Origin: Alphaproteobacteria bacterium
GTDB lineage: Bacteria > Pseudomonadota > Alphaproteobacteria > JAAXGF01
Length of the DNA stretch: 64,000 bases
Assembly (NCBI GenBank): GCA_963555825.3
Contig: CAUVXB020000002.1
Coordinates: forward strand, 2,528,001-2,592,000
Direction of reading: 5' to 3'
Below, piece by piece: positions 21,732-53,168 of this stretch (positions are counted from its first letter, which is position 1; each line of letters opens with the position of its first letter). Under the pieces are notes generated by a model. That model did not search any database, was not told where the DNA came from, and saw nothing but the letters and a program-made list of their open reading frames with translations. The position numbers and the translations under genes were made by a program.

Positions 21732-23417
21732 CAGCCTGTGTGAGAACGTTTGCTGCTATTTCTGTGTGGCGCGTCTTTGGGTTTGGATGATCAGTCGGGA
21801 CGTGTTTTCCGGGATTATGGATTTTCGCCGCTCGTGCGGGCTTTTCGGCCGGCTGGCGCCGTTGTGAGCCGCGATGTGGCCGGGTATAGGCGTAATTGTC
21901 GGCGCAGGGGCGCCTATGCCGTCCTGATCGCCGCGATCAGCGGGTCGATGCCCATGATGTTCATGACGCGCTTGAGATTGTAGGCCAGCACGTGCAAGGC
22001 CATCTCGGTCCTCACCCGCTTCAGCGTCTTCATCTGGAAGTGCGTCGCGCCCATCCAGGCCTTGAGGGTGCCGAAGGGATGCTCGGCCGTCTCGCGCCGC
22101 CGACGCATCGCCTCCGGGTGCTCGTCGAGCCGCCTCTCGACGGCCTCGAGAATGTGTTCGTGCTGCCAACGGGTGATGCGGCGCTGCTTGGCCGTGGTGC
22201 AGCGATGCTTGATGGCGCATCCCTGACAGGCGTTGGTCCAGTAGCGCCGCATGCTCAGCCCCCTCTCCTGGCTGGTGAAGCGGTAGACCAAACGCTCGCC
22301 GGCCGGGCAGCGATAGACATCGTCGGCGGCCAGATAGACGAAGTCCTGTTTGCCGAAGCGGCCCTTGGCCTTGGCTCCAGAGGTCAGCGGCTTAGGCAAT
22401 GTGACGGTGATGCCGGCCTCATCGCAGGCCAGAATCTCCTTGCCGTTGTAGTAGCCGCGATCGGCAACGACATCCAACTCGTCGGTCTCCAGAGCCGCCT
22501 TGGTCCGCTTCGCCATGGCTGAGAGCTGGGCGCGGTCGGTGCCCTGATTGGTCACCTCGTGGGCGACGATCAGGTGGTGCTTGGTGTCGACGGCGGCCTG
22601 AACGTTGTAGCCGACCACGCCGGAACCCCGGCCGCTCGTCGCCATCGAGCGGGCATCGGGATCGCTCAGAGAGATCTGCTGGTCCGGGCTCGCACGCCGC
22701 TCGACTTCAAGCGCCTTCAGGCGCCGCATCTCCTCCTTGAGGATCGCGATCTTGTCGGCCAGACGAGTCGTCTTGGTCGTGCGCGCCAGCGACGGCTCTT
22801 GCCGGTCGGCGCTGTCCAACTGGTCCAGATAGCGCGCAACGCTCTCCTCGATCTGCGCCACCCGCCGCGCCATCTTGGCCCGCGTGAAGTTCCTGTCCCG
22901 GCTGTTGACCGCCTTGAACTTCGAGCCATCGATCGCCACGCTCGCCTCGGCGAACAGCCCGAGTTGCCGGCACAGCGCGACGAACCGAGCGCAGACCTTG
23001 CGGATCGCAGAACCGTTGTCCTTGGCCGAAGTCGGCGATCGTCTTGTGATCCGGCACCAGCCGACCGACCAGCCACATCACTTCGACGTTGCGCCCGGCC
23101 TCCCGTTCGAGCCGCCGGCTCGACTGAACCCGGTTCAGGTAGCCGTAGATGTAAAGTTTCAACATATCCGCGGGATGATAGCTCGGCCGGCCGGTCGCCA
23201 GCGGCTCGACCCGGTCGAACCCGAGGCCGCCAAGATCGAGCTCATCGACGAAGACGTCGATCGCCCGAACCGGGTTATCATCGCCGATCCAGTCTTCCAG
23301 GCGCTCCGGAAACAACGTGCCCTGGCTGCGATCGACACCCTCCACAAAACGCTTCATCAGACCCTCCCGCCAAAGCACGAGAGAATCATAACACCATCGA
23401 CGTTTTCACACAGGCTG
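21732..23417 (-). mobile_element. IS1182-family element, copy 1
   Basis: IRs CAGCCTGTGTGAGAACG / CGTTTTCACACAGGCTG; 4-bp flanking duplication GGTC; near-identical to 51485-53168. Confidence 0.92.
21914..23357 (-). pseudogene. IS1182 transposase, frameshifted
   Basis: +1 base near 23025 (GACTTCGGCCAAG vs GACTTCCGCAAG in the intact copy) splits it into the 22707-23378 and 21914-22939 ORFs. Confidence 0.88.
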
Positions 23418-29776: not shown

Positions 29777-30184
29777 ATCATCGACGGTTGCGATGGCGAG
29801 ATCGCCCGGCTGAAACATTCCCAGAGCGAGTTCGGCGGCTGGTTCGACGCGGTCCTTGATCGGTATGCCGACGCCGTCCTGTTGTTCGGCCTGATGTGGC
29901 ACGAATTCGCTGCGACCGGCACGACCATATCCGTCGTGTTGGGGTTCGTGGCGATTGTAGGGTCGTTCCTAAACAGCTATACGGCGGACAAGTACGACGG
30001 ACTGATGGCTCGAAGGTTGCGAGGCGCCTCATACTTTCGGCTGGGCCGTGACGTTCGGGTTTTCGTCATCTTCCTTGGCGCCATCTTAAACCAGCCGCTA
30101 TTCACACTGCGTGTCGTTGCATTGGCGATGAATTTGGAAGTGGTTCGAAGGATCGTGATTTACAGGCGCGCTGCAGTGTTTTAG
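29777..30184 (+). pseudogene. 5'-truncated CDP-alcohol phosphotransferase (DIPP-synthase-like C-terminal part)
   Basis: Manual translation IIDGCDGEIARLKHSQSEFGGWFDAVLDRYAD matches the DxxDGxxAR...GxxxDxxxD signature; a TGA lies immediately upstream in frame. Confidence 0.8.
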
Positions 30185-30349
30185 CGGGCGAATGCCTGCT
30201 CTATTCAGCAGGACGCTGCTCAAGCATGACCGCTACGCAGCGTCGCTACAATCGAACCGTCAGCGCGCCGCCAGACCCAACCGAACCCTGTTCAATTTTC
30301 CGAAGGCCTTCACGTGCCCCCAATGTCCTGTGTGGATGGCTCCCGCGTT

Positions 30350-30591
30350 GCAAGGACTTTTTTCGGCGTAGCGACCTAGTCAGGTACAGTCTTGTGTCCG
30401 GCCTGTTGATGCGGTTTTGTTGAACCGCTGGCCCTGATGGTATCCGTGGATCGGGTCCCTATCTGCTTAGCGGGCTCGAACACCCAGGACATTCGTCGGG
30501 TTGTCCCGATCCCCGGTCTGACCGGTTCGCCATCACGTCTCGTCGTCCTTGCAATCGTCGAAAGGCGTTGTGCCTTCGAGAGATCAATTGG
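30350..30591 (-). ncRNA. Putative bridge/seek RNA of the IS1111 element
   Basis: Non-coding region 3' of the recombinase with segments matching target (AATGTCCT; AAGCAG) and donor (CCATC; ACACA), each pair separated by a stem-loop; RNA ends approximate. Confidence 0.65.
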
Positions 30592-31626
30592 TCATGCGGT
30601 CCCCTCAGTTGCGGGTCGGTGAGCGCGGTAGGCCTCGCCACGGGTCATGATGACCCAGGCGATCCGCGCGGCCTTGTTGGCCATGGCCACGGCGACCAGC
30701 TTGTTGGGCTTGCTTACCAGCAAGTTGGTGATCCAGGGGTGAACCTCGGGCTTGCGCCGTGCCGATTGAAGCTGTGATGTCATGCCGATCACCAGCAGAC
30801 GGCGAAGATAGCGGTCCGCCATCTTGGAGATGCGTCCCATGCGATCCTTGCCGGCGCTGGAATCGGCCTTGGGCGTTAGCCCGAGCGAGGCGGCAAACTG
30901 GCGAGCCGATGTGAACCGGTGCGGATCGGTGACCGAGGCCGCCAGCGCCGAGGCGGTGATGTAACCAATCCCCGGAATGGTCGCGAGCCGTTTGGCCAGG
31001 TCGTTGCCGCGGAACCAGGTCTTGATCTCGCCCTCGATCATGGCGACCCGGGCTTGCAACTCGCGGATCTGCTCGGCCAGGGCAATGACGATCTTGCATG
31101 CCAGCGGGGGAATGTCCGGCACCACTCCTTCGACAAGCTGATCGACGAGCCTCAGCGCGTGATGAATGCCTTTGGCCAGCACGATGCCCAACTCGGCCAG
31201 CTGGGACCGGATCATGTTGACCAGCTGGGTGCGCTGGCCGACCAGTAGATCCCGTGTTCGGTGGAGCGCCAGGACCGATTGCTGCTCGGCCGACTTGATC
31301 GCGACGAACCGCATCGTGGGGCGCGTCACCGCCTCGCAGATCGCCTCCGCATCGGCGGCGTCGGTCTTGCCGCGCTTGACGTATGGTTTGACGTAGATCG
31401 GTGGCATCAATTTCACCTCGTGCCCCAATGCCTGGAGCTCGCGGGACCAGAAGTGGCTCGTGCCGCACGCCTCGATACCGATCAGACACGGTTCCAGCTT
31501 GCCGAAGAACGGCATCATCTGGCGCCGGCGCAACGATCGGCGGACGATGACCTTGCCGGTGCTGTCAATGCCGTGGACTTGGAAAACGTTCTTGGCCAGA
31601 TCGAGGCCGACAGTGGTAACTTCCAT
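30592..31626 (-). CDS. IS110 DEDD recombinase/transposase
   Basis: GLDLAK, IEAC, KTDAADAEAI, IPGIG, GLTPKADSSAGK, VAMANKAARIAW. Confidence 0.93.
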   Translation of the reverse strand: MEVTTVGLDLAKNVFQVHGIDSTGKVIVRRSLRRRQMMPFFGKLEPCLIGIEACGTSHFWSRELQALGHEVKLMPPIYVKPYVKRGKTDAADAEAICEAVTRPTMRFVAIKSAEQQSVLALHRTRDLLVGQRTQLVNMIRSQLAELGIVLAKGIHHALRLVDQLVEGVVPDIPPLACKIVIALAEQIRELQARVAMIEGEIKTWFRGNDLAKRLATIPGIGYITASALAASVTDPHRFTSARQFAASLGLTPKADSSAGKDRMGRISKMADRYLRRLLVIGMTSQLQSARRKPEVHPWITNLLVSKPNKLVAVAMANKAARIAWVIMTRGEAYRAHRPATEGTA

Positions 31627-31721
31627 GGCGGATAGCTCCTCTTGCTCGTGGTTGATAACAACCACCACTTTGGCATCTCGGTGCCGGGAGCGGGAGCCAT
31701 CCACCCCATCTGCTTCGGGTT

Positions 31722-31882
31722 CAGACTGTGTAAAAACGTCATTCAATTCAGTTTTTCGAGTAAATCTGCTTGATCCCTGAAGATTGCAGCCTGCTAAGTA
31801 ATTGGTTTCATAAACACTGAAAATTCAACGAATGGGCTGAGATCACATTTCGAGCGATTCTCCGACGTTTTTACACAGCCTG
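31722..31882. mobile_element. 161-bp MITE with IS1182-type ends
   Basis: IRs CAGACTGTGTAAAAACGTC / GACGTTTTTACACAGCCTG (18/19); left IR identical to the IS1182 end at 51485; flanks GGTT/GGTC; AT-rich interior. Confidence 0.85.
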
Positions 31883-32051
31883 GGTCAGGAGCAAACATTG
31901 CCGGCGTAGGCGCGCGGCGTCCGCTTTGTCGCGGGAAGCAGACATTAGTGGTCAACATTGGGATTTCCTCGCCGGCGGGGTCCGCTTCCGAGCAGACAGC
32001 GGACGTCGCAGGGCAAAGCTGTCGACGCCGGCTTTTGCCATGAACGGACCC
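31883..32051. repeat. Cluster of GTCCGC-N-GCGGAC hairpin repeats at island right edge
   Basis: ggtcaggagcaaacatt, cgtccgctttgtcgcgggaagcagacatt, gggtccgcttccgagcagacagcggacgt, cggcttttgccatgaacggacc. Confidence 0.7.
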
Positions 32052-32237
32052 AAGGGCGAGTAATGCGGCGCCAATGCTTATCGGAACTCGGCCGATCGAG
32101 ACGAGCCCCCGCGGACAACCGACAAATCACAAACTGAACGCCCTCCCCGGGGCGATATGTACACGGGTCGTCACGTTGCACTTACTTCAAAGAATAGACC
32201 GCGACTGACGGTAACGTCGACCGTGCGGGGCGGGCCG

Positions 32238-51484: not shown

Positions 51485-53168
51485 CAGACTGTGTAAAAAC
51501 GTCGATGGTGTTATGATTCTCTCGTGCTTTGGCGGGAGGGTCTGATGAAGCGTTTTGTCGAGGGTGTCGATCGCAGCCAGGGCACGTTGTTTCCGGAGCG
51601 CCTGGAAGACTGGATCGGCGACGACAACCCGGTTCGGGCGATCGACGTCTTCGTCGATGAGCTCGATCTTGGCGGCCTCGGGTTCGACCGGGTCGAGCCG
51701 CTGGCGACCGGCAGGCCGGCCTATCATCCTTGCGATTTGTTGAAGCTCTACATCTACGGCTATCTCAACCGGGTTCAGTCGAGCCGTCGGCTCGAGAGGG
51801 AGGCCGGGCGCAATGTGGAAGTGATGTGGCTGGTCGGCCGGCTGGCGCCGGATCACAAGACGATCGCCGACTTCCGCAAGGACAACGGCCGTGCGATCCG
51901 CAAGGTCTGCGCCCGGTTCGTCGCGCTGTGCCGGCAACTCGGGCTGTTCGCCGAGGCGAGCGTGGCGATCGATGGCTCGAAGTTCAAGGCGGTCAACAGC
52001 CGGGACAGGAACTTCACGCGGGCCAAGATGGCGCGGCGGGTGGCGCAGATCGAGGAGAGCGTTGCGCGCTATCTGGACCAGTTGGACAGCGCCGACCGGC
52101 AAGAGCCGTCGCTGGCGCGCACGACCAAGACGACTCGTCTGGCCGACAAGATCGCGATCCTCAAGGAGGAGATGCGGCGCCTGAAGGCGCTTGAAGTCGA
52201 GCGGCGTGCGAGCCCGGACCAGCAGATCTCTCTGAGCGATCCCGATGCCCGCTCGATGGCGACGAGCGGCCGGGGTTCCGGCGTGGTCGGCTACAACGTT
52301 CAGGCCGCCGTCGACACCAAGCACCACCTGATCGTCGCCCACGAGGTGACCAATCAGGGCACCGACCGCGCCCAGCTCTCAGCCATGGCGAAGCGGACCA
52401 AGGCGGCTCTGGAGACCGACGAGTTGGATGTCGTTGCCGATCGCGGCTACTACAACGGCAAGGAGATTCTGGCCTGCGATGAGGCCGGCATCACCGTCAC
52501 ATTGCCTAAGCCGCTGACCTCTGGAGCCAAGGCCAAGGGCCGCTTCGGCAAACAGGACTTCGTCTATCTGGCCGCCGACGATGTCTATCGCTGCCCGGCC
52601 GGCGAGCGTTTGGTCTACCGCTTCACCAGCCAGGAGAGGGGGCTGAGCATGCGGCGCTACTGGACCAACGCCTGTCAGGGATGCGCCATCAAGCATCGCT
52701 GCACCACGGCCAAGCAGCGCCGCATCACCCGCTGGCAGCACGAGCATGTTCTCGAGGCCGTCGAGAGGCGGCTCGACGAGCACCCGGAGGCGATGCGTCG
52801 GCGGCGCGAGACGGCCGAGCATCCCTTCGGCACCATCAAGTCCTGGATGGGCGCGACGCATTTCCAGACGAAGACGCTGAAACGGGTGAGGACCGAGATG
52901 GCCCTGCACGTGCTGGCCTACAATCTCAAGCGCGTCATGAACATCACGGGCATCGACCCGCTGATCGCGGCGATGAGGACCGCATAGGCCTCTCTGCGCC
53001 GCAAATTGCGCCCATATCCGGCCAAATCGCAGCTCACACCGGCGCCAGCCGGCCGACAGGTCCGCACGAGTGGCGAAAATCCTTAATCCCGGAATACCCG
53101 CCGCGACGGATCATCGAAGCCAAAGACGCGCCGTACAGATCACGCAGCAAACGTTCTTACACAGTCTG
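51485..53168 (+). mobile_element. IS1182-family element, copy 2
   Basis: IRs CAGACTGTGTAAAAACG / CGTTCTTACACAGTCTG; 4-bp duplication GACC (51481-84, 53169-72). Confidence 0.93.
51545..52987 (+). CDS. IS1182 transposase, intact
   Basis: SSRRLERE, PDHKTIADFRK, AIDGSK, GYNVQ, ADRGY, EHPFGTIK. Confidence 0.93.
   Translation: MKRFVEGVDRSQGTLFPERLEDWIGDDNPVRAIDVFVDELDLGGLGFDRVEPLATGRPAYHPCDLLKLYIYGYLNRVQSSRRLEREAGRNVEVMWLVGRLAPDHKTIADFRKDNGRAIRKVCARFVALCRQLGLFAEASVAIDGSKFKAVNSRDRNFTRAKMARRVAQIEESVARYLDQLDSADRQEPSLARTTKTTRLADKIAILKEEMRRLKALEVERRASPDQQISLSDPDARSMATSGRGSGVVGYNVQAAVDTKHHLIVAHEVTNQGTDRAQLSAMAKRTKAALETDELDVVADRGYYNGKEILACDEAGITVTLPKPLTSGAKAKGRFGKQDFVYLAADDVYRCPAGERLVYRFTSQERGLSMRRYWTNACQGCAIKHRCTTAKQRRITRWQHEHVLEAVERRLDEHPEAMRRRRETAEHPFGTIKSWMGATHFQTKTLKRVRTEMALHVLAYNLKRVMNITGIDPLIAAMRTA

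Follow-up and report, generated by a model that had tools for sequence, protein, structure and literature searches.

Does the non-coding region of a bacterial insertion sequence name the site into which the element inserts? The question is raised by an element of the IS1111 group in the window, the whole 64,000-nucleotide stretch of alphaproteobacterial DNA that was analysed. RNA-guided target choice by IS110 and IS1111 elements was shown experimentally in 2024, as described in PMC11187229 and PMC11208160, and bridge RNAs have been predicted for 93% of catalogued IS1111 elements, by the account given in PMC11208160. Because such targeting has already been demonstrated, the mechanistic weight of the locus is small, and a natural guide directed at a natural target, regarded as new in the initial annotation of this DNA, had been published for IS110/IS1111 in the descriptions of the same two papers. 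The element or its close relatives may already be included in Supplementary Table 5 of PMC11208160 or in the ISfinder-based lists of PMC11187229. Its four independent insertions, together with an empty site and relatives by the dozen whose guides differ, make the locus a clean natural test set for guide-prediction tools. The stretch 30329-31709 is very probably an active or recently active element of the IS1111 group (IS110 family), whose 3' non-coding region would encode a bridge (seek) RNA.

Anatomy of the element

IS1111 elements are defined by subterminal repeats and a non-coding region 3' of the gene, as described in PMC11187229. The anatomy of the element in the window, obtained by computation, comprises the following parts.

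30329-31709, minus strand: whole IS1111-group element, delimited by comparison of copies, 73 relatives and the empty site of relative G004
30592-31626, minus strand: recombinase gene, open, 344 aa, with PF01548 and PF02371; same length in five copies
30329-30346, minus strand: right end in element orientation, a 15-bp subterminal inverted repeat, then the 3-nt extension ACA
31690-31709, minus strand: left end in element orientation, the 5-nt extension ATGGG, then the 15-bp subterminal inverted repeat

The intact element measures 1381 bp excluding the core copies, and its end reads TGTGTGG on the plus strand. The 15-bp subterminal inverted repeats (30332-30346 and 31690-31704), extended outwards by 3 and 5 nt, lie within the 7-17 bp typical of IS1111, and the non-coding stretch 3' of the recombinase stop codon is 263 nt long versus 83 nt 5' of the start codon. 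The genome holds five copies of about 99-100% identity at four independent sites. Full-length relatives that include the non-coding region are also present in 16 plasmid records, where they are labelled IS110-family transposase. A sister family in the same genome, family A, forms arrays of right-end pieces, comparable to the additional copies of small-RNA regions outside complete elements described in PMC12288879.

The recombinase carries an N-terminal DEDD (RuvC-like) domain (PF01548, E 1.1e-16, residues 6-145) and a C-terminal Transposase_20 domain (PF02371, E 7.4e-23), the latter resembling the structures of ISCro4 and IS621 (IS621 8wt6, E 1e-9). Amino acid identity across the five copies is 98.8-100%. 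The open frame of 344 aa agrees with the intact recombinase claimed initially, with one peculiarity: in the motif GLTPKADS-SA-G the conserved Ser is followed in all five copies by Ala in place of Gly. Among 80 relatives the residue pair is Ser-Gly in 72, Thr-Gly in seven and Gly-Gly in one, so that 79 have Ser/Thr-Gly and none Ser-Ala.

This substitution is the basis of the most serious alternative, in which the element is a genuine IS1111-type element of a crippled lineage, Ser-Ala having cut or abolished activity and the guides being relics of earlier targeting. In L031, the nearest relative (82% amino acid identity), the pair is Ser-Gly, and in Piv, a related protein, the Ser-Gly pair has been reported as required, according to PMC11187229. 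However, Ser-Ala copies with open 344-aa frames and near-identical sequence occupy four independent sites, and therefore that version itself has spread; moreover, Thr-Ala is occasionally present in IS1111 recombinases, as stated in PMC11187229. No other recombinase in the genome is associated with the same ends, the sister families being 56-58% identical and having GGACGG repeats versus GGATGG in the element studied. A crippled lineage is thus considered unlikely, and the preferred reading remains that of an active or recently active element.

The insertion site

The target is the 11-mer AATGT-CY-GCTT, without any extra base, as judged from 73 related elements and the empty site. At the copy in the window it is divided as follows.

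30322-30326, plus strand: target arm AATGT adjoining the element, identical at four independent sites and present in the G004 empty site
30327-30328, plus strand: copy of the core dinucleotide, CC (GG when read with the element); the G004 empty site reads AATGT-CC-G
31710-31711, plus strand: second copy of the core dinucleotide, CT (AG when read with the element), the same in every one of the five copies
31712-31717, plus strand: opposite target arm GCTTCG; site flanks GCTT, GCTT, GCTA and GTAA

AATGT is the left target arm on the strand whose core begins with C, and the right arm in recombinase orientation. All five copies, at the four independent sites, are bordered by AATGT at one end and by G(C)(T)T at the opposite end, and beyond about 7-9 nt on either side the flanks of the four independent copies diverge completely. 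Relative G004 retains the uninterrupted orthologous site, AATGT-CC-GTTA.., in which the flanks are adjacent with a single dinucleotide between them. Insertion is thus sequence-specific, with a 2-nt core copy on each side, although the two copies here are unequal (CC and CT). The copy at 30327-30328, CC or CT among the other copies, is read as target-derived and that at 31710-31711 as donor-type. The junctions proposed in the initial annotation, AATGTC-CT-GTGTGG and CCCCAT-CT-GCTT, are one base off with respect to the element at 30329-31709 and its flanking CC and CT.

Structure of the predicted RNA

The following features have been recognized in the non-coding region.

30378-30523, minus strand: predicted bridge/seek RNA core, outer stem GGUCAG to CUGACU, supported by fold z-score (-3.5) and consensus structure
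30505-30511, minus strand: 5' half of the target-loop closing stem, GAUCGGG, paired with 30449-30455
30449-30455, minus strand: 3' half of the target-loop closing stem, CCCGAUC, paired with 30505-30511
30472-30485, minus strand: hairpin inside the target-binding loop; its four pairs each have both bases changed in 8 to 24 sequences
30400-30433, minus strand: stem-loop inside the donor-binding loop, GGCC / GCGGUU..AACCGC / GGCC, pairs with up to 17 double-change sequences
30348-30354, minus strand: CTTGCAA, conserved and similar to a -35 hexamer, at a distance of 19 nt from the end of the element

The predicted core surrounds two loops, one target-binding and one donor-binding. In addition to the z-score of the single-sequence fold, a consensus structure computed by RNAalifold from 57 related non-coding regions contains 25 pairs, 18 of which show compensatory changes; in the closing stem of the target loop, each of the seven pairs has 6 to 25 double-change sequences (n=57). 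The alignment consists of 54 of the 60 foreign regions and three from the same genome, omitting L061, L085, L097, L100, L104 and L109 (truncated flanks or near-duplicates). The CTTGC motif is invariant or nearly so among the 57 relatives, and by analogy with published elements CTTGCAA could be a half-promoter completed only at the junction of a circular form. A scan of 30250-31800 on both strands found no promoter-like or terminator-like site, and an Rfam scan of 29800-32200 with E up to 1, which covers only the models in the release used, gave no match.

Contigs assembled from four RNA libraries (three studies) cover the non-coding region; these contigs have neither strand nor defined ends, and DNA carry-over is possible. 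The unique flank 30200-30311 is uncovered in all four runs, and depth peaks at 30480-30535, but neither the gap nor the peak was taken as evidence, because the contigs pool relatives. In run X10, one contig links the non-coding region to the sequence flanking a different copy of the element.

Predicted guides against the target and the donor

Four short segments within the predicted loops are candidate guides.

30487-30495, minus strand: target guide 1 with core, CGAAUGU-CC, matching the element's own flank
30461-30470, minus strand: target guide 2, CUAAGC, core AG, then AU, complementary to plus-strand ..CT-GCTTAG
30435-30441, minus strand: donor guide 1, ACCAU-CA, same sense as plus-strand CCCAT-CT at the circle junction
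30389-30397, minus strand: donor guide 2, ACACA, core AG, then AC, matching the element right end

Motifs reported initially are where they were said to be: AATGTCCT is the reverse complement of 30486-30493 and AAGCAG that of 30463-30468, CCATC that of 30436-30440 and ACACA that of 30393-30397, and the hairpins GGG..CCC (30472-30485) and GGCC-GCGGTT..AACCGC-GGCC (30400-30433) are as described. A target match of eight and then six nucleotides, also claimed there, does not hold with the correct empty site; when the non-coding region is shuffled by mononucleotides, the test applied to the single element, 391 of 20000 shuffles produce such a pattern. In this copy the matching stretch is AATGTCC (7 nt), followed by AAGC(A)G at five of six positions, and in the guide comparison it scores 7/9 for target guide 1 and 5/6 for target guide 2; at two of the four independent sites target guide 2 fits poorly (3/6 and 1/6). 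Paired 5-nt donor matches are present in 19301 of 20000 shuffles, which bears out the early suspicion that these matches by themselves are at chance level. Because the 8-then-6 pattern failed and the donor pair was at chance, single-copy statistics were replaced by comparison across the family. It is the other copies and the relatives, not this single copy, that place the pattern beyond chance.

For this comparison 80 loci were fetched, 60 of which had recognizable subterminal repeats; together with 13 from the same genome they gave 73 elements, 62 of which have complete flanks and ungapped guide slices. Target guide 1 matches its own flank at seven or more of nine positions in 29 of 52 guide classes, compared with 6.9% of cross pairs, and target guide 2 at five or more of six in 25 of 52, compared with 6.5%. 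This flank test allowed two registers, for own and cross pairs alike. The guides of homologous elements thus track their own flanks in the covariation check that had been proposed initially. In permutation tests, which treat the elements as unrelated and ignore kinship, target guide 1 has 360 matching positions of 671 (permuted mean 233.5) and target guide 2 has 365 of 488 (permuted mean 197.6), with 0 of 2000 permutations as high in either case. The core of target guide 2 equals the junction dinucleotide of the same side in 51 of 62 elements; for target guide 1, a fixed-register comparison gives 24 of 62, a value lowered by a one-base register shift in a clade with TG cores.

On the donor side, donor guide 1 matches 5 contiguous nt in this copy, and its covariation is weak (315 of 427 positions versus a permuted mean of 285.6, a count reached by 0 of 2000 permutations). 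Donor guide 2, on the 3' strand of the loop, matches 8 nt of the circle junction (ACACAAGA). Among 62 relatives, 61 carry a guide identical to the terminal 5 nt of their own element, and this extends to the variants ACAGA (13/13), ACAAA and ATACA. In the copy studied, the AC that follows the core of donor guide 2 corresponds to the first two bases of the neighbouring target arm and is a predicted handshake guide; this donor-loop dinucleotide agrees with the flank in 47 of the 62 elements, a count that 0 of 5000 permutations reach. Likewise, AU after the core of target guide 2 could form a handshake-like pairing with the final two donor-arm bases, the target-loop dinucleotide being equal to donor AT in just 24 of 62 elements, in a set where the donor bases are invariant.

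The domains, the anatomy and the covariation of the RNA, of guides with flanks and of guides with ends agree with the initial description of an IS1111-type element with guides in its 3' non-coding region. In the proposed mechanism, CGAAUGU-CC and CUAAGC-AG of the target loop would pair with opposite strands of (C)GAATGT-CY-GCTTAG, target guide 1 pairing with the opposite strand because it has the same sense as plus-strand AATGT-CC. ACCAU-CA and ACACA-AG of the donor loop would pair with both element ends joined in a circular intermediate, and the post-core dinucleotides AU and AC would be positioned like the handshake guides of IS621. On the model of IS621 and ISEc11, the DEDD/Ser recombinase with its bound RNA would draw the circle junction and the target together, strands being exchanged at the 2-nt core. 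Production and binding of the RNA, the chemistry of strand exchange and the circle with its junction promoter are inferred from the literature.

It might be argued that the non-coding region is a structured 3' UTR or a protein-binding DNA serving end recognition, stability or translation control rather than target choice, considering that Rfam has no match with E up to 1. However, it is the unpaired loop strands, not the stems, that covary with DNA outside the element, a behaviour not expected of a stability element; moreover, the homologous RNAs of ISEc11, ISKpn4, ISPa11 and ISPst6 co-purify with the transposase and are needed for transposition, as reported in PMC11187229. This explanation is very improbable. 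Scarcely credible is an artefact of wrong ends, in which the conserved flanks belong to the element: end placement is difficult in IS110/IS1111 and some ISfinder entries are erroneous (as noted in PMC11187229), and the earlier junction parse was itself one base off, but the four independent copies diverge fully past about 7-9 nt on each side, G004 has both flanks adjacent in an uninterrupted site, and in 52 guide classes from many genomes flanks vary and guides vary along with them.

Comparison with known systems

From their descriptions in PMC11187229, the IS1111 seekRNA elements ISEc11, ISKpn4, ISPa11 and ISPst6 share with the element studied a recombinase of the DEDD type, 330-350 aa long, subterminal inverted repeats and a long downstream non-coding region, as well as two short RNA segments that match opposite target strands and overlap at the insertion point. 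The guide order also agrees with that published for IS1111, as described in PMC11187229: read in the direction of the recombinase, the top-strand match comes 5' and the bottom-strand match 3'. The element studied differs from these four in its target, AATGT-CY-GCTT, and in having Ser-Ala rather than Ser/Thr-Gly after the GL-P motif.

IS621, as described in PMC11208160, likewise has a two-loop RNA, each loop with one bottom-strand guide (arm and core) and one top-strand guide, and a 2-nt core that begins with C on the reference strand; the dinucleotides past the core may match non-cognate DNA, as handshake guides do in the description of PMC11208158, the donor-loop one tracking the target flank in 47 of 62 relatives. 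The handshake-guide layout of IS621 may thus extend to the IS1111 branch. Unlike IS621, the RNA here lies 3' rather than 5' of the gene, the C-first core strand is opposite the gene, the subterminal repeats are long (15 bp) and the second core base is variable, often unequal between the two junctions (23/62 relatives).

Unequal junction dinucleotides, found in the window copy and in those 23 of 62 relatives, are uniformly AG/GG in 11 of the latter, and provide a cheap natural read-out of the core per strand. A tentative interpretation, held to be possible although not probable, is that in this clade the second core base differs between donor and target and the guide cores are split, target guide 1 carrying the target's core and target guide 2 and donor guide 2 the donor's. 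The asymmetry would then reflect single-strand transfer followed by replication, one side of the junction keeping the target dinucleotide and the other the donor dinucleotide. If true, this would be natural evidence, in the other branch of the family, for the copy-and-paste model proposed for IS621. In the same proposal, three sister elements of this one genome would have retargeted their guides a few bases apart on one repeat, which also receives an IS5/IS1182-like element.

The target repeat

ISPpu9 and ISPpu10 of Pseudomonas putida, both of the IS110 family, have repetitive extragenic palindromes as their insertion sites, according to PMC12288879 and bioRxiv 10.64898/2026.03.19.712850. Their targets, like that of the element studied, are short motifs in repeated, partly palindromic intergenic sequence or beside a transposon end, as are those of IS4321 and IS5075; hosts and motifs differ, and the repeat here is mostly the flank of IS5/IS1182-like ends rather than an abundant family of free-standing palindromes.

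The targets of IS4321 and IS5075 are the inverted repeats of Tn21-type transposons. In the window, the neighbour of the target is the following.

31722-31882, no strand assigned: miniature form (161 bp) derived from an IS5/IS1182-like element, 10 nt separating its terminus from the insertion

Full-length copies of this IS5/IS1182-like element encode DDE_Tnp_1 and DUF772, and the target motif is the conserved outer flank at 74 of its ends; at several foreign insertions the motif is one arm of an inverted repeat. The suggestion that the guide is programmed against a hairpin repeat family consequently stands as far as a repeated motif flanking IS5/IS1182-like ends is concerned, while abundant free-standing hairpins are unsupported. 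Such a hairpin family is not borne out, inverted pairs of strict 8-nt arms within 3-40 nt numbering 19 versus 12 direct-repeat controls. In a genome census, strict 8-nt arms occur 541 and 532 times, compared with about 515 expected per strand by a hand estimate from base composition. Near-perfect target sites are barely above chance: a genome scan with the 15-nt target, the core C being fixed, gave 1 site at 14/15 (0.5 expected), 20 at 13/15 (11 expected) and 170 at 12/15 (146 expected). Six of the 21 best genome target sites are flagged as lying beside an IS5-like terminus.

Element, recombinase and insertion site

The initial annotation described an IS1111 element with an intact recombinase and with guides matching its own insertion site. 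This observation is real, apart from a one-base correction, and its interpretation, borne out by comparison with relatives, is right; natural guides of this kind, presented there as new, had already been described in 2024. The parts of the element and its surroundings are as follows.

Features of the element and its neighbourhood in the window
30329-31709, minus strand: IS1111-group element
30592-31626, minus strand: recombinase gene (344 aa), with two Pfam domains of IS110-family recombinases
30332-30346 and 31690-31704: 15-bp subterminal inverted repeat, one arm on each side of the recombinase gene
30327-30328 (CC) and 31710-31711 (CT), plus strand: copies of the core dinucleotide, one per side
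31722-31882: 161-bp miniature IS5/IS1182-like derivative, directly beside the insertion
21743-23406 and 51496-53157: two IS5/IS1182-like copies of 1.66 kb (DDE_Tnp_1, DDE_Tnp_1_6, DUF772)

The recombinase domains are PF01548 (E 1e-16) and PF02371 (E 7e-23), and the solved transposases of ISCro4 (E 3.5e-11) and IS621 (E 1.3e-9) match its C-terminal domain. The stop codon is followed by a non-coding stretch of about 263 nt; membership of the IS1111 group is defined by such a long 3' region together with subterminal repeats (PMC11187229, PMC11208160). Five full copies of about 99-100% identity are present in the genome (6.04 Mb, 2 contigs), all with open frames (98.8-100% amino acid identity), and since two of them have common flanks, they represent four independent insertions. 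All five carry Ser-Ala after the GL-P motif (residues 254-255), beside the presumed catalytic serine, a position occupied in 80 relatives by Ser-Gly (72), Thr-Gly (7) or Gly-Gly (1). The Ser-Ala version has probably been mobile, because it is present at four independent sites.

Junctions of the five copies, read on the window plus strand
Window copy: left AATGT-CC, right CT-GCTT
Copy 2: left AATGT-CT, right CT-GCTT
Copy 3: left AATGT-CC, right CT-GCTA
Copies 4 and 5 (common flanks): left AATGT-CT, right CT-GTAA

The left junction had been annotated as AATGTC-CT-GTGTGG, a parse shifted by one base. Each of 73 related elements ends in ..CCAC(A/G)(C/A)A, with two bases after it, and the orthologous place in G004, the genome of a relative from the same family, holds the uninterrupted site ..CCCCCAATGT-CC-GTTATGGGTCCAGGCTGTG... 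Read from these ends and this empty site, the element spans 30329-31709 and its target is the 11-mer AATGT-CY-GCTT.

Fold and guides of the predicted RNA

Folding of the non-coding region, a check proposed with the original description, gave for the 30330-30595 minus-strand transcript a structure better than those of 200/200 shuffles (z -3.5). The predicted fold comprises two modules inside one outer stem: an internal loop that contains a small hairpin and is closed by the stem GAUCGGG/CCCGAUC, and an internal loop closed by a 3-bp stem and a GGCC stem-loop. In an alignment of 57 regions (this element, two sister families of the same genome and 54 elements from other genomes, with 52-82% recombinase identity), RNAalifold predicted 25 pairs, 18 of which are kept through two-sided changes seen in between one and 25 sequences per pair, and the variable parts are the loop strands. 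RNA family models gave no match to the non-coding region, and none of the promoter and terminator patterns looked for in the element region was present. The motif CTTGCAA, invariant or nearly so across relatives and 19 nt from the element end, may act as the -35 element of a promoter that becomes complete only once the ends are joined in the circle. Four RNA libraries, from three studies, yielded contigs over the non-coding region; these lack strand and ends, and their template could be non-RNA.

Guide strands of the window copy
Loop 1, 5' strand: CGAAUGU-CC, same sense as plus-strand AATGT-CC
Loop 1, 3' strand: CUAAGC-AG-AU, complement of plus-strand CT-GCTTAG
Loop 2, 5' strand: ACCAU-CA; the plus-strand element end plus core is CCCAT-CT
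Loop 2, 3' strand: ACACA-AG-AC; in element orientation, the opposite end with its core reads ..CCACACA-AG

Taken alone, this copy offers thin evidence, namely a target match of 7 contiguous nt plus 5/6 and donor matches of 5 and 8 nt for the two guides; the caution that 5-nt donor matches could be chance was well placed, as the donor 5-mer pair occurred in 19301/20000 shuffles. The case is carried by comparison with relatives.

Covariation of guides with flanks and ends

Identical alignment columns were sliced from each element and compared with its own flanks, with complete data in 62/73 elements. Covariation between guides and targets across homologous elements, which the initial annotation had put forward as a check, was found for both target guides: guide 1 matched its own flanks at 360/671 positions (permuted mean 233.5) and guide 2 at 365/488 (permuted mean 197.6), values reached in 0/2000 permutations each, in tests that ignore the relatedness of elements. 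Shared descent cannot give such agreement, because flanking sequence is external to the element and is not passed down along with it. Among guide classes, each represented by its first member (n=52) and with two registers allowed for own and cross pairs alike, guide 1 matched its own flank at 7/9 or better in 29/52, vs 6.9% of cross pairs, and guide 2 at 5/6 or better in 25/52, vs 6.5%. Examples include ..ACATGTCC paired with flank GG-ACATG, GTCAGTCC with GG-ACTGAC and GGTTCCCCCA with TG-GGGGAACC, as well as ATTTC-AG, ACAAC-AG and CAAAAC-TG, each with identical bases in its flank.

The donor 3' guide is identical to the final five bases of its own element in 61/62 elements and agrees with variant ends (ACAGA in 13/13, ACAAA in one, ATACA in one); covariation of the donor 5' guide across the 62 is weak. 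The two bases after the donor-guide core are the first two of the adjacent flank in 47/62 elements, and 38 of 49 class representatives agree, against a permuted mean of 20.8 (0/5000 permutations reach 38). Target guide 2 is poorly matched at two of the four independent sites (3/6 and 1/6), recalling the 'half-match' insertions of IS621 in bioRxiv 10.64898/2026.08.31.748434.

Junction dinucleotides and proposed mechanism

The order of guides, with the top-strand guide 5' of the bottom-strand guide in recombinase orientation, is that given for IS1111 seekRNAs in PMC11187229. When the layout is compared on the opposite strand, the core starts with C both here and in IS621. As in IS621, one guide of each loop spans arm plus core of the bottom strand, and the second guide spans the remaining arm, on the top strand, followed by the core and a dinucleotide that would match the non-cognate DNA; these dinucleotides are putative counterparts of the IS621 handshake guides (PMC11208158). 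By analogy, the recombinase would act as a tetramer that carries the RNA and brings circle junction and target into pairing, and the conserved serine would cleave next to the core, followed by strand exchange.

The two flanking dinucleotides are unequal in 23/62 elements, in 11 of which AG is gene-proximal and GG lies on the other side, the pattern of the window copy. The junction side that is constant over the five copies (CT, plus strand) is the core of target guide 2 and donor guide 2, a correspondence that extends family-wide to 51/62 and 52/62 elements, respectively; the variable side is the dinucleotide of the empty site (CC) and the core of target guide 1. These data fit a model in which the target-core strand stays at one junction and the donor-core strand at the other; it is a lead rather than a result, because it draws on counts of junctions and on a single empty site, found in a different genus. 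Top-strand exchange as described for IS621 would yield the same outcome (PMC11208158), and the single-strand, copy-and-paste proposal for IS621 agrees with this model.

The target repeat

The guide had been described as apparently programmed against a hairpin repeat family. The genome gives no demonstration of an abundant free-standing family of this kind, although the motif is non-random. Arms matching the strict 8 nt are about as frequent as estimated by hand from base composition, with 19 inverted pairs vs 12 in direct-repeat controls, and near-perfect 15-nt target sites are barely commoner than chance. The 1.66-kb IS5/IS1182-like element, whose full-length form encodes DDE_Tnp_1 and DUF772, and its roughly 160-bp derivatives contribute 74 termini, one of which (31722) is 10 nt from the window insertion. 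The 17 nt outside these termini have a position-specific consensus, with G, C, G, A, C and T each in 57-66/74 at fixed positions, and GCRGAC occurs there in 30/74, vs 0.6% at random places. At several insertions in other genomes (L031, L033, L035, L037), an inverted repeat TGTCCGC..N10-12..GCGGACA has, by eye, the target as its second arm. From the terminus consensus and these inverted repeats, the target is read as one arm of a palindromic repeat, degenerate in sequence, which is also used by other elements; targeting of repeats and transposon ends by IS110/IS1111 elements is already in the literature.

In the two full-length IS5/IS1182-like copies of the window, the two ORFs that carry the domains overlap, each in its own reading frame. 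After the miniature derivative, 31883-31950 holds the repeat arms ..AGCAAACATT.., ..GTCCGCT.. and ..AAGCAGACATT.

Sister families and partial copies

Three sister IS1111-type families, 56-58% identical to the window recombinase, occur in the same genome outside the window, with homologous non-coding regions, other guides and other cores (TG, TA).

Sister families on the two contigs, C1 and C2
Family A: C1:170309-171331 and six more
Family B: C2:1013291-1014322 and four more
Family C: C2:2409479-2410507

Family A adjoins AATGTCYGCT.. motifs a few bases off the site of the window element, in opposite orientation, and some copies abut the ends of other family members. Its right-end part forms tandem arrays at C1:169596-170187 (locus L015, 208-799), C2:2097748-2099389, C1:2233731-2234754 and C2:1403003-1404086, which include a 134-nt unit x 3.0 and a 94-nt unit x 3.0, both 100% identical. 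Each array junction fuses ..CACACA-TG with a TG inside the family's own non-coding region or gene end. The arrays appear to have arisen through recombination of the element end with internal pseudo-targets, a process that would have amplified the donor-loop portion of the RNA gene.

Fragments at C1:946345, C1:1263231 and C1:1714427, 89-91% identical to window 30322-30814, are truncated copies with only the gene 3' end and non-coding region. Their target-binding-loop segment is tandemly duplicated, with a joint (..CTAAGC-GG-ACAACC..) resembling the element's own target motif. Of the left flank of the window insertion, 418 nt of unique-looking sequence (window 29777-30194) have a second copy of 94% identity on the same contig, at C2:37738-38155.
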